DNA of 32,000 bases from Candidatus Saccharimonadota bacterium (GCA_004563595.2 CP042461.1:540001-572000), one strand, 5' to 3'; shown: positions 16,044 through 22,172, counted from the first letter of the stretch. A program made the numbers and translations. Notes: generated by a model from the sequence alone, not told the origin.

Positions 16044-16081
16044 ACAAATTAAAAGACCTTATATAAGGTCTTTTAATTTGT
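16044..16081. terminator. bidirectional terminator (perfect long inverted repeat)
   Basis: acaaattaaaagacctta-ta-taaggtcttttaatttgt lies between convergent genes and includes the nrnA stop. Confidence 0.8.
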
Positions 16082-17039
16082 CTAAAATTTCTTTTTCTGC
16101 TTCTTTCATTGAAAGTTCTGTATAGAATCATGCTGCTTGTTTGTGTCATCATCATCCATATGAAGCACACAGGCTTGCTACATCATAACCAGTTGATCTA
16201 AAGCTTGTTTTTAGTTTGGTGTCATCTATATAGTAGATAAGGAAGCAAACTTCCATTCATTCCATGTTTGATAAGAATTCATTTATGAGTCATGAAGTCT
16301 CTTTATCTGTAGTATTTGTTTTTTCAAAGAGTTCTTTTGGTATTAAACCCCATACAATTTTTCAATTCTCGCTTGATTTCAGGTTTTTTAGTACTTCTCA
16401 CCAGAGTCTTGATTTTGTAAGATTTTTCTTTTTATAGAAGTGAAACATAGGAGATCTAAAATCAGCTCAAAGTTCCATGAGTTTTGCTGCTGTATGGAGT
16501 GTTGTTGGAGTTGTATTTGAATTATAGAATATATTTGTATCTGTGTGAATTCATGTTGTGAGAAGAGTTGCTATTTTTGGATCAATATATGAATCAAGTC
16601 ATATAGATTCCAATACTCTGAATAGTAATTCACATGTAGATGATGATTTTGTATCTATAATATTGAGACTTCAAAATCATGGATTGGTAATATGGTGATC
16701 AAAAACTACAAAATCTGTATTTTTAAATATTTCTATATTATTTTTATAAGTATTTCAGAGTTGATCAAGAGATGCAGCATCTAAACTAATTATCAAGTCG
16801 GGGCTAAATTGTTTTATATCTAATTCTGGAGTGACAATATCATCCATTCATAAAAAACTAAAATCAGCAGGTGATTTCTCATCATTTATAGCAGCTACAT
16901 TATAGTTTAATTTTTTAAGGATGAGATATAGTGCAGTCAAGCTTCAAAAGCAATCAGGATCCATTCTTATATGATTTATAAGAAGGATATTCTTAGCTAA
17001 AGCGAGTTTTTTTCAAAACTCTGCAATTTTTTGTTCCAT
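16059..17039 (-). CDS. nrnA: DHH/DHHA1 family phosphoesterase (NrnA-like oligoribonuclease/pAp phosphatase), 326 aa
   Basis: Motifs NHIRMDPDCFGS, DHH (VVFDHHITN) and DHHA1 (YGGGGHKQAAGF). Three consecutive Gly codons at 16146-16154 are TGA. Confidence 0.85.
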
Positions 17040-17921
17040 TGTATATGTATTATGATTTATATTGAAGAGATTATAGGTTTAATTTATTTTTAGTAAAGTT
17101 ATATCAAAAAAATAGGCGTAAAAAAAAGTTAAGTATATTGGGTAATAGGGACTTAACTTATATATTGTCTAATTCTCACGCTAGACAATATATAAGTTGT
17201 TGTCTAGGAAGAGTAGATCGATTTCGAAAAACTAACCTGTGTTTCTCTATGAAGATGCTCAATCTTCTTAATTTAAACCTCGTTTGGGCAATTATTTAAA
17301 AGCTATTCACCATGCTTTTTTATTTTTGTTTTTTGAACTATTTCTCAAGTTCTTTTTTTTGTTGTTGGGTGATAGTTATATTCATCCAATAATCAATATG
17401 AATTGATTACTCAATGAATATAACTACTTAACCGTTTTTATTTTTATTTTTGGATATAAATAAATCTATATCATCTTTTTTGGTAGGAGGTCTTACTAGG
17501 TTTCTGTAAGTTCCGTTCTAACGAAGAAAAAATTATTTTAATGAACAAGTAAGTTATTAATCTAACTTACACATTTATTATAACAGTTTATCAAAAATAT
17601 CTCTAAAATATTATATTGACTTTTCTGTTTTCTCTAGGGTCTCCTATATTATTACCCACTGTTAAGCTCTATTTTAAAGGAAAAGTAGAATTAATATTTT
17701 CTTAAGGTTTGATTTGAAAATAGTCTCTATTTTAAAGGAATTATTGTGTTTTTTAGGTCTATAAAAAGGCTACTTTGTTTCAAAAATGTATACATCTATT
17801 GAGGATACCTTTTATTGTTAATAACTTGTAGAAAACTAAGTGAAAGTCTCTTCTGTAATAAATTTGTAATTATAAAAAAATCCTTAATATAAGAGTAATT
17901 GTTTAAAAATAACACTTATAA
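17040..17921. other. ~880 bp non-coding spacer with multiple stable hairpins and terminator-like elements; candidate ncRNA(s), unidentified
   Basis: All six frames are dense in TAA/TAG. A perfect 16-bp stem lies at 17156-17171/17182-17197, overlapping a 9-bp stem at 17130s/17151-17159. A hairpin sits at 17251-17267 and a stem plus T-run at 17298-17321. A 12-bp stem with a nested 7-bp stem at 17374-17425 is followed by a T-rich run. A 7-bp hairpin lies at 17549-17570. The 16-nt direct repeat ctctattttaaaggaa occurs at 17667 and 17725. Confidence 0.5.
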
Positions 17922-19988
17922 ATGCCTGAAAATACTTACTTTACTAGGTCAAAAGGATTTCTTGGAAAAGAAATAGATACGTATGTAGAAAAAGATATCA
18001 TCGAGTTGCAAGATCTTATTTCATATCACAATGACTTATATTATAATAAAGAAGATCCTATTATCAGTGATTTTGAATATGATCAACTTTTTAAAAACTT
18101 AGCTTTCCTTGAAAAAAAGTTTTGAATTCAATCAATGCAAACGTCAGAAGTTGGTTCTACACTTAAAGAATCTACTTTTGAGAAAGTGAAGCATAGTAGG
18201 CCAATGATTAGTCTAGATAATACTTACAATGAGGATGATTTAAATGACTTTAATGAGAGGGTTTCAAAATTGTCTGATTCGGTTTGAATTATAGACTATA
18301 CTCTTGAATTCAAATTCGACTGACTATGAGTAGAGCTAATTTATAAAAATTGAAAATTGGTTCAAGCGATCACAAGGTGAAATGGTATAGAATGAGAGGA
18401 CGTTACTGAGAACGCAATGCAGGTGAGCAATATACCTAAAGAGATAGAGTATAAAGATCATTTAGAGGTGAGATGAGAAGTTGTAATGCCCATTTCTATA
18501 TTTAATGAATTGAACGAGGATGCAAAAAAGACTTGAGACAAAGTATTCTCGAATCCTAGAAATGCAGCGAGTTGAAGCTTGAGATTGATAGATAATAGTG
18601 TTACAAAAAAAAGAAAACTGAAGTTTTTTGCTTATGATCTTGCTAACTTCGAGGAGTTTAGAATAAAAGAAAATAAAACAGAGTATTTTGATGTTATTAA
18701 AGATATCGATAATTTATGATTTGAAACATCAAGTTATTTCAAAAAATTATCTTGAATATCAGAAGTTATTACAGCAGTTGAAAACTTTTGAGATACAAAG
18801 AATAATATTGATTTTGAAATTGATGGATTAGTTTTAAAAGTAAATCATATTGATTATTGGAAAAAAATAGGCTCTACTGAGCATCATCCACGTTATGCAA
18901 TTGCATATAAATTTCCTGCTGAGATATTTACCACTCAGATATTATCTGTTGAACATCAAGTTTGAAGAACTTGAGCCATCACACCAGTTGCTAATTTAGA
19001 AGCTGTAAATATGTGATGAGCTATTATTAAAAGGGCTACTTTACATAACTATGAAGAAGTAGAAAGCTTAGATGTCAGAATAGGGGATACAGTGTTTATT
19101 AAAAGAGCATGAGAAGTGATTCCTAAAATAATTTCAGTTGTAAAAACTTGAGAGAGGGATAACTTAGAGAAAATATTTCCTCCAAAATTTTGCCCGAGTT
19201 GTGAGACTGAAGTGGTAAAAGATGAGTGAAAAGTGAGGTATTATTGTCCAAATGACCTAGATTGTCCTGCAAAACATTCTGAAAAATTAGCATTCTCGGT
19301 AGGGAAACAATGATTTAATATAGATGGTCTATGAGAACGACAAGTAGAAATATTTTTACAAGAAGGGATTATTCATAACTTAGTTGATGTATTTCAGATA
19401 GAAAATAAAAGAGAAGAGATATTAGCTCTTGAATGATTTAAAGAAAAAGCGGTATCAAATCTGATTACTTGAGTAAATAATGCAAAAGATGTAAGTATAG
19501 CAACCTTCCTTACCGCACTTTGAATTGCATGAGTTGGGAAGAAGACAGCAAAGACTTTGGCTCAATTATTTGAAAATAAAGAAGATTTACTTTTATTTTC
19601 TTCATCTGTTGAAAGTTTAGAAAAACTTGCTGATATTTGACCAGAAATAGCAAAGAATGTAATTGAATATTTTTGAAATGCTGCTCATAAGAGGTTATTA
19701 GAAGAGTTAAGTGGCATATTAGATATTAGTTATTATAAAAATATTTTATTAGATTCAGATTTAATATTCACTTGAAAGAAGATGTGTATAACTTGAAGTT
19801 TTGATATATACAAAAGGGAAGAGTTAGCAAAGATACTAGAAGAAAATGGTTGAGAATTTATGAGTAGTGTCACAAAAAAAACAGATTTTTTACTTGCTTG
19901 AGACAAAGCTTGAAGTAAACTAAAAAAAGCGAATGATTTATGAGTAGAAGTTGTAAGTTTAAATGAATTTTTAGAAAGAGTAAGCTAA
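17922..19988 (+). CDS. ligA: NAD-dependent DNA ligase LigA, 688 aa
   Basis: Adenylation motif EFKFD-G-L-G with Lys at 18312-18314 and both Gly as TGA (18321-18323 and 18327-18329). Also ITRGNGIEGEDVTEN, the Zn-finger CPSCETEVVKDEG..YYCPNDLDCP, then HhH and BRCT-like regions. Confidence 0.95.
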
Positions 19989-22096: not shown

Positions 22097-22172
22097 GGAT
22101 CCATAGCTCAGTTGGTAGAGCACTCGCCTCTTAAGCGATAGGTCCCGGGATCGTAGCCCGGTGGGTCCACCA
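22097..22172 (+). tRNA. tRNA-Lys (anticodon CTT) with encoded CCA
   Basis: Cloverleaf by hand: acceptor GGATCCA/TGGGTCC, D arm GCTC-AGTTGGTA-GAGC, anticodon arm CTCGC-CTCTTAA-GCGAT, variable loop AGGTC, T arm CCGGG-ATCGTAG-CCCGG, discriminator A, then CCA. Confidence 0.93.

Follow-up and report, generated by a model that had tools for sequence, protein, structure and literature searches.

A candidate large structured RNA gene beside ligA in one family of Gracilibacteria using genetic code 25

We analysed a 32,000-nucleotide stretch (the window; positions are counted from its first letter) of the genome of a Candidatus Saccharimonadota bacterium (GCA_004563595.2, CP042461.1:540001-572000), a single contig of 1.34 Mb in which TGA is read as sense (genetic code table 25). 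The subject is the spacer at 17040-17921, which separates two divergent genes, nrnA on the minus strand (16059-17039) and ligA on the plus strand (17922-19988). Very probably this spacer holds a real and novel gene for a structured RNA that is read from the minus strand. The predicted gene (17572-17120) is free-standing and appears to encode a non-coding RNA (ncRNA) of ~450 nt that belongs to a previously uncatalogued family. Of the explanations considered, the best overall, and one that we regard as likely, is a separate minus-strand ncRNA gene of this size whose product we infer to have a structural role in trans.

A conserved and covarying structure

To locate conserved parts of the spacer, a DNA query spanning it was searched against 40 relatives. 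Nearly all of the family's 24 other genera gave a match to the segment 17121-17625 (~490 bp), with identities of 66-83%; many of the relatives' matches end at exactly 17121, and in this search the conservation of the spacer was at least equal to that of the flanking coding DNA. The 456-nt core also folds more stably than shuffled sequences, with z = -7.0 for the minus strand and -5.3 for the plus strand.

The structure was scored on a full-length alignment of 50 homologues, in which the 74 pairs of 12 helices were compared with 500 shuffles. Pairs were formed in 92.0% of cases (77.2% in shuffles), and the alignment contained 572 double-change cells against 163.5 in the shuffles, none of which did as well (0/500). 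When the partners were slid by 1-3 columns as a control, pairing fell to 36-47%. The five helices of the 3' half gave a similar picture in an alignment of 22 homologues, being 93.2% paired (78.2% shuffled) with 100 double-change cells (26 shuffled). An automatic helix finder was also run on the A+U-rich alignment, and its output was too noisy for use. In four of the hairpins (P1, P4, P6 and P8) the sequences are unrelated among homologues while the hairpin itself is retained in 44-50 of the 50. The initial annotation had proposed that the spacer encodes structured ncRNA, and its conservation, its fold stability and its covarying helices bear this out; the checks that proved decisive, both of them suggested there, were covariation, which is strong in the table-25 relatives, and comparison with Rfam, which yielded no family match.

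Several signals together place a single RNA of ~450 nt on the minus strand. Upstream lies a TATAAT hexamer (17577-17582) with a TG extension (17577-17585, minus strand), which scored 10/12 matches plus the TG in a promoter scan. The 50-sequence alignment (columns 148-163) shows conservation both of this -10 box and of its fixed spacing to P1, and the conserved block starts 6-7 nt downstream of the box. At the other end is a terminator hairpin, P11, which is 91.5% paired with double changes at 8/9 pairs in the 50 sequences and is followed by a conserved U-tail; conservation stops at its edge, 17121. A simple terminator scan of both strands returned no match, because the stems are too A+U-rich for a rule that requires three G-C pairs. 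Read on the minus strand, the 74 pairs include 243 GU/UG cells and only 85 AC/CA cells. Finally, a covarying contact between positions 17498-17501 and 17235-17238 ties the 5' and 3' halves together. The ends of the RNA, 17572 and 17120, were placed from the promoter and terminator signals.

Architecture of the predicted RNA

The predicted features, all on the minus strand, are given below in 5' to 3' order after the gene as a whole.

17120-17572, minus: whole RNA gene, with a predicted start immediately 5' of P1 and reaching through the terminator U-tail
17577-17605, minus: putative RNA promoter, with TAGAGA (-35-like), a 17-nt spacer and a TG-extended TATAAT
17549-17570, minus: P1, the 5'-terminal hairpin, GUAAGUUA / UAACUUAC; 96.8% paired with compensatory changes, hairpin in 44/50
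17535-17546, minus: conserved single strand after P1, GUUCAUUAAAAU
17525-17528 / 17516-17519, minus: P2, with covariation (50 sequences)
17506-17514 / 17486-17496, minus: P3, with double changes in 18/50 at two pairs
17497-17505, minus: loop L3, carrying the 5' side of the kissing contact at 17498-17501
17453-17475, minus: P4, variable in sequence; 44/50 homologues have a hairpin of 4 bp or more here, with unrelated sequences
17434-17452, minus: A-rich motif 1, single strand, CAAAAAUAAAAAUAAAAAC; invariant or nearly invariant columns A150-A166, direct repeat D1/D4
17375-17424, minus: P5, two helices stacked into one long hairpin; 22 pairs, 91-95% paired, 20 with double changes
17335-17352, minus: P6, a small variable hairpin, GAAC/GUUC here; hairpin in 44/50 homologues
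17315-17334, minus: A-rich motif 2, AAAAAACAAAAAUAAAAAAG; nearly invariant columns, repeat D1, 3' end entering P7
17314-17318 / 17299-17303, minus: P7 hairpin, 96.0% paired (50 homologues)
17287-17318, minus: H-type pseudoknot, GGUGA of the P7 loop (17307-17311) pairing with downstream UUACC (17287-17291)
17251-17267, minus: P8, a hairpin of variable length in 50/50 homologues, mean z = -3.3; alignment columns 690-748
17226-17247, minus: P9 hairpin, double changes at 7/7 pairs; its loop L9 contributes 17235-17238 as 3' side of the kissing contact
17155-17208, minus: three-strand switch region, with strands up (CCUAGACAA, 17200-17208), mid (ending ...UUGUCUAG, 17181-17198) and down (UAGACAA..., 17155-17171)
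17120-17159, minus: P11, predicted intrinsic terminator; 9-bp stem, conserved 16-nt loop with UAUUACCCAAUAU, U8 tail at 17120-17127

Among the 50 homologues the helices of the P2/P3 region (17486-17528) are 94-96% paired. Outside the helices, the two A-rich motifs contribute two nearly invariant 18-mers lying single-stranded between hairpins. P8 has a feature of its own in many homologues (e.g. L045, L055, L069 and L070), though not here: it is lengthened by a conserved hairpin tip of the form GUUC-(GNRA or UUUU)-GAAUC (columns 700-735). Large RNAs use elements of this kind, here a GUUC-tetraloop-GAAUC tip, for docking into a receptor.

Two tertiary pairings are conserved across the family. 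The pseudoknot helix is 98.4% paired and is kept by the variants GGCA/UGCC, CGUG/CACG and GGUU/GACC. A second copy of UUACCCAA, in the terminator loop, was considered as an alternative partner and rejected, since the three homologues that are informative show no covariation between it and the P7 loop. The second pairing is the kissing contact of 4-5 bp between the P3 and P9 loops, which lie ~260 nt apart and so join the 5' and 3' halves. It is 99.5% paired, and pairing is kept in all 50 sequences through seven sequence states (including ACCU/AGGU, AUCC/GGAU and AUCU/AGAU), with pair counts of UA 31 / CG 18 at one position and CG 30 / UA 18 at another. A tree built without the kissing-loop columns requires no fewer than 12 changes of loop state, and the direction of change is the same in all of the 4-7 phylogenetically independent pairs.

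Close to the 3' end the mid strand contains GUCUAG and can take either of two CUAGAC copies as its partner, the up-mid pairing being P10 and the mid-down pairing P10'. These pairings were examined with an alignment-free duplex test, in which each strand was paired with its own partner or with that of another species (2000 permutations). Cognate duplexes were the more stable in both cases (-9.9 versus -6.4 kcal/mol for P10, and -7.9 versus -5.5 kcal/mol for P10'), and no permutation was as good in either (0/2000 each). By alignment columns P10 is 77% paired and P10' 58%; P10 is found in all homologues, and in this genome P10' reaches -19.2 kcal/mol.

Much of this local structure had been recognized in the initial annotation, and all the elements that it listed are present, either where it placed them or no more than two bases away. 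The perfect stem described there as 16 bp corresponds to P10' and is in fact 17 bp long (17155-17171 / 17182-17198), the adjacent 9-bp stem (17126-17134 / 17151-17159) shares five bases with it, not four, and the third copy of ttgtcta is found at 17200-17206. The suggestion of mutually exclusive folds holds for the perfect stem and the third ttgtcta copy, as the duplex test indicates. It does not hold for the GTAAGTT/AACTTAC elements, which are present but whose alternative pairing is not conserved; the strand exchange between P1 and P3 that they would allow was rejected, given that the two helices vary independently in the alignment.

Distribution and genomic setting

Gracilibacteria are uncultivated, small-genome bacteria of the Candidate Phyla Radiation (CPR) with a reassigned stop codon. 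A covariance model built on the 3' half of the RNA (R1), which scores 195 bits on this window (17117-17378), was used to follow the RNA within and beyond its own family of this group. In an order-level sample R1 matched 19/20 genomes of that family (87-230 bits) and 0/40 genomes of two sister families of the same order. In a class-wide sample it matched 7/7 genomes of the family, while among 113 genomes from more than 30 other families of the class it found nothing except two marginal matches of ~30 bits. A scan with a 23-nt pattern added 39 Gracilibacteria/Patescibacteria metagenome-assembled genomes (MAGs) and 30 metagenome contigs that R1 confirmed, as well as five chance matches in other phyla that R1 rejected. 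The RNA is thus present in nearly every searched genome of one table-25 Gracilibacteria family.

A few genomes stand apart. The sole same-family genome sampled that had no R1 match under stricter filters (G021) has a weak DNA match to the promoter/P1 part on one contig (C6). Two others (G009 and G008) gave a second match on another contig in the DNA search, and that of G009 aligns with the family.

The gene almost always stands head-to-head with ligA. On its other side nrnA usually follows 55-135 nt past the terminator, but elsewhere the distance is 0.85-3.5 kb or the locus lacks nrnA, and at least eight genomes have a convergent gene in the next position. In three genomes the RNA gene is duplicated in tandem: two diverged copies stand between ligA and nrnA, each a complete unit (L082, G004:C12, 1631-2796; L066, 5099-6339; L059, 1742-3104). 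We also looked for a homologue at the syntenic site in the sister families and rejected it, as ligA there has no long upstream spacer. No viral contig carried the RNA in the 23-nt pattern scan, and an association with phages was rejected on that count. The fixed chromosomal site, which is not that of a mobile element, points to a cellular rather than a phage-related function.

This setting bears on the alternative that fares best, namely that the RNA is a cis-acting leader of nrnA, similar to a riboswitch or attenuator, that decides between termination and read-through with the up, mid and down strands as its expression platform. Such a leader would account for the position of nrnA, which in most genomes is on the same strand and a short distance beyond the terminator, and for alternative pairings just upstream of that terminator, where P10' overlaps the P11 stem by 5 nt in this genome. 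That overlap is not conserved, however, and nrnA has a promoter-like site of its own beyond the terminator. With 450 nt and 12 helices the RNA is also far above known leaders and matches no aptamer family. The convergent, displaced or missing next gene, the tandem copies and the short ligA upstream regions of the sister families argue instead for an independent, trans-acting gene, and we consider the leader explanation very unlikely.

Tests against known RNA families

Rfam 15 was searched at gathering scores with all 4227 models (including OLE, ROOL, GOLLD, raiA, HEARO and riboswitches), and the only match in the window was a tRNA at 22097. A relaxed search of 16900-18050 on both strands (E up to 10) likewise gave no family match, the best scores being 18 bits (E = 2.8-7.5) for eukaryotic or viral families. 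Nor did the searchable full-text literature contain anything relevant on an ncRNA described for Gracilibacteria, Patescibacteria or CPR.

Individual housekeeping RNAs were considered as well. RNase P RNA and tmRNA are ruled out, for both are encoded outside the window (RF00010, 160 bits, genome 722390-722777; RF00023, 75.5 bits, genome 839962-840420). The 6S RNA model (RF00013) matched neither the genome nor the spacer, and a 6S architecture was rejected because the ends of the RNA are local covarying hairpins, P1 and P11, with end-to-end pairing absent from the predicted fold. Signal recognition particle (SRP) RNA (RF00169, RF01854) had no match genome-wide at E up to 1 and was undetected in 41/41 genomes of the order. 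A six-frame search of the genome also found no match to the Ffh M domain (PF02978) or the SRP54-type GTPase domain of Ffh/FtsY (PF00448), both of which were matched in 14/14 control genomes. It has been reported that some CPR bacteria have lost SRP subunits (PMC8080830), and the absence of SRP here confirms that report and is not new. With neither SRP proteins nor a match to SRP RNA, the RNA cannot be SRP RNA; moreover, SRP RNA is missing throughout the order while this RNA is confined to one family, so that the absence of SRP does not track it.

A known housekeeping RNA such as 6S or SRP RNA might nevertheless have diverged so extremely that Rfam models fail to recognize it. Neither of these is detectable in this single-contig genome, and a near-universal gene in the family with a strong promoter would suit such an RNA. 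Against this, the SRP proteins are undetected and the ranges of the two RNAs disagree, the molecule has local end hairpins and no closing stem round a central bubble, and is 2.5 times too long for 6S RNA, and the RNase P RNA and tmRNA genes have been located elsewhere. Taken together these points leave divergence beyond recognition less probable even than a leader.

The plus strand and coding content

On the plus strand, the region had been read as at least two short transcripts (~17110-17330 and ~17340-17450), each ending in a hairpin and T-run. Some of what this model describes is there: the plus strand folds with a negative z-score as well, the stem of the first hairpin (17299-17318) is real and corresponds to P7, and the 12-bp stem with a nested 7-bp stem is present as a 25-nt inverted repeat (17373-17426), which is P5. 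The T-rich runs that follow them exist too, but they are the complements of the two conserved A-rich 18-mers and not terminator tails. It is on the minus strand that G-U cells exceed A-C cells and that the U-tail and the extended, conserved -10 box lie; a conserved plus-strand promoter was not found, and the covarying loop-loop contact bridges the supposed units, which must then be one molecule or copies of one molecule touching. Separate plus-strand transcripts are accordingly highly improbable. The further ~470 bp that had been left unexplained divide into the 5' half of the RNA (17453-17572) and, for the rest, a divergent promoter region (17600-17921).

The spacer was described as closed in all six frames, which is essentially right: the largest open reading frames (ORFs) under table 25 are 86 aa (with a TTG start) and 59 aa, neither is retained in relatives, and the six-frame translation is rich in stops. 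The nrnA-ligA gap of the relatives is likewise ~0.9 kb, and no ORF common to them was found. A decayed pseudogene or non-functional spacer, for which the length, A+T-richness and short ORFs of the region might speak, has a negligible probability in view of conservation no lower than that of the flanking genes, substitutions that preserve hairpins by compensatory change, indels whose lengths are not multiples of three and a sequence that, apart from its own internal palindrome, has no other copy in a genome-wide repeat search.

Flanking genes and regulatory signals

The minus-strand gene at 16059-17039 encodes a DHH+DHHA1 (NrnA-like) protein and the plus-strand gene at 17922-19988 an NAD-dependent DNA ligase. 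The region 17600-17921 is the shared divergent promoter region of the RNA gene and ligA. Two further sets of signals flank the RNA gene.

17070-17097, minus: probable own promoter of nrnA, TTTACT, 16-nt spacer, TATAAT; 10/12 matches in the promoter scan
17667-17682 and 17725-17740, plus: two CTCTATTTTAAAGGAA copies, a 16-nt direct repeat 58 bp apart in the divergent RNA-gene/ligA promoter region

The first lies between the RNA terminator and the start codon of nrnA and is, from its sequence, probably the promoter of that gene. The direct repeat, whose copies at 17667 and 17725 had been noted before, may belong to the ligA promoter or serve as a site for a regulator. Nowhere in the 1.34 Mb except at the two CTCTATTTTAAAGGAA copies is CTCTATTTTAARG matched. 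In five other genomes a related motif, in opposite orientation, precedes the -10 box of the RNA gene by ~85 nt; the combination suggests a regulatory site specific to this locus.

A Shine-Dalgarno sequence is not visible at the start codon of either nrnA (17039) or ligA (17922), and both leaders are A/U-rich. If such leaders were the rule genome-wide, the A-rich strands of the RNA would resemble the translation-initiation regions of its host.

Possible roles

We propose that the RNA is made constitutively and would act in trans as a structural RNA. It could do so in either of two forms. In the first it would scaffold a ribonucleoprotein, and proteins would bind to its A-rich strands and conserved loops (AAGUGA, UAUUACCCAAUAU). 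In the second it would be a self-assembling 'ornate' RNA like OLE, ROOL and GOLLD. The exchange between P10 and P10' might in either form be a folding or conformational step. A scaffold or assembly mechanism of this kind is offered tentatively. With slightly less assurance again, the RNA may represent a new class of large tertiary-structured RNA with a housekeeping-like place in one Gracilibacteria family, serving in RNA-only self-assembly, as a ribozyme, or as the core of a ribonucleoprotein of a kind not yet known, in which the A-rich and duplicated strands would drive assembly or a switch.

Several considerations weigh on the other side. Transcription, transcript ends and abundance are all deduced from sequence signals only. 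No conserved gene for a partner protein lies beside the RNA gene, and Hfq, considered as a reader of the A-rich (A-A-N)-like strands, was rejected because it is absent from the genome, which leaves the obvious reader of such strands missing. A strong P10' (-8 to -24 kcal/mol) is limited to ~20/50 homologues; in the rest it is weak, and with its lower column pairing this makes a conserved switch less secure than the main fold. As to the kissing contact, covariation cannot separate an intramolecular from an intermolecular pairing, and a sign test on four independent kissing-loop pairs gives p = 0.125, the lowest value that four pairs allow.

Comparison with known systems

To our knowledge only a handful of large tertiary-structured bacterial RNAs have been recognized (rRNAs, RNase P RNA, tmRNA, group I/II introns, OLE, GOLLD, ROOL, HEARO and raiA), and each of those known to us has proved to be a catalyst, a component of a machine or, recently, a self-assembling nanostructure. 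What is new here is an uncatalogued large structured RNA gene that occurs family-wide, in nearly every genome searched. MAG annotations, which at present leave an unexplained gap of 0.9 kb at this place, can now include it, and an alignment of 50 sequences that covers the pseudoknot, the long-range contact and the alternative pairing provides a basis for work on structure and partners.

Terminator-based leaders such as riboswitches and T-boxes share with this RNA a conserved terminator preceded by mutually exclusive pairings and, often, a position upstream of a gene, here nrnA. They differ in that the gene downstream of the RNA is not constant and is often convergent, in its tandem copies, in a size and number of helices far larger than theirs, and in the lack of any aptamer match. 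6S RNA is comparable as the product of a housekeeping-type ncRNA gene with a strong promoter, and the canonical 6S RNA is undetected in this genome; the present RNA, however, lacks the closing stem, the central bubble and the terminal loop of 6S RNA, is ~450 nt rather than ~185 nt long and is not matched by RF00013.

In the way it might work the RNA recalls CsrB/RsmZ, which are likewise independently transcribed and present repeated conserved single-stranded motifs between hairpins, although abundance is here deduced. Instead of many GGA loops it has two A-rich 18-mers, and no partner protein is known for it, Hfq being absent and CsrA not having been searched for.

The closest comparison is with the ornate RNAs (OLE, ROOL, GOLLD and raiA). 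Like them the RNA is hundreds of nucleotides long, has its own predicted transcription unit and A-rich strands, contains many helices tied by pseudoknots or kissing loops, and combines a narrow phylogenetic range with no known function. Its length of ~450 nt, 12 covarying helices, pseudoknot, long-range contact, promoter and terminator are those of an ornate large RNA in kind. Unlike them it has no sequence or structure match among the Rfam 15 models (cmscan, both strands), occupies a fixed chromosomal ligA-nrnA site, mostly in single copy, and was not found on viral contigs; its host belongs to a CPR lineage (Gracilibacteria) with genetic code 25. OLE, ROOL and GOLLD assemble from RNA alone into homo-oligomers that are stabilized by kissing loops together with A-minor contacts and an A-A helix, with covariation at the contacts between molecules (PMC12286853). 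By analogy, this mode of assembly provides a concrete model for the roles that the L3-L9 contact and the A-rich strands may play in the RNA described here.

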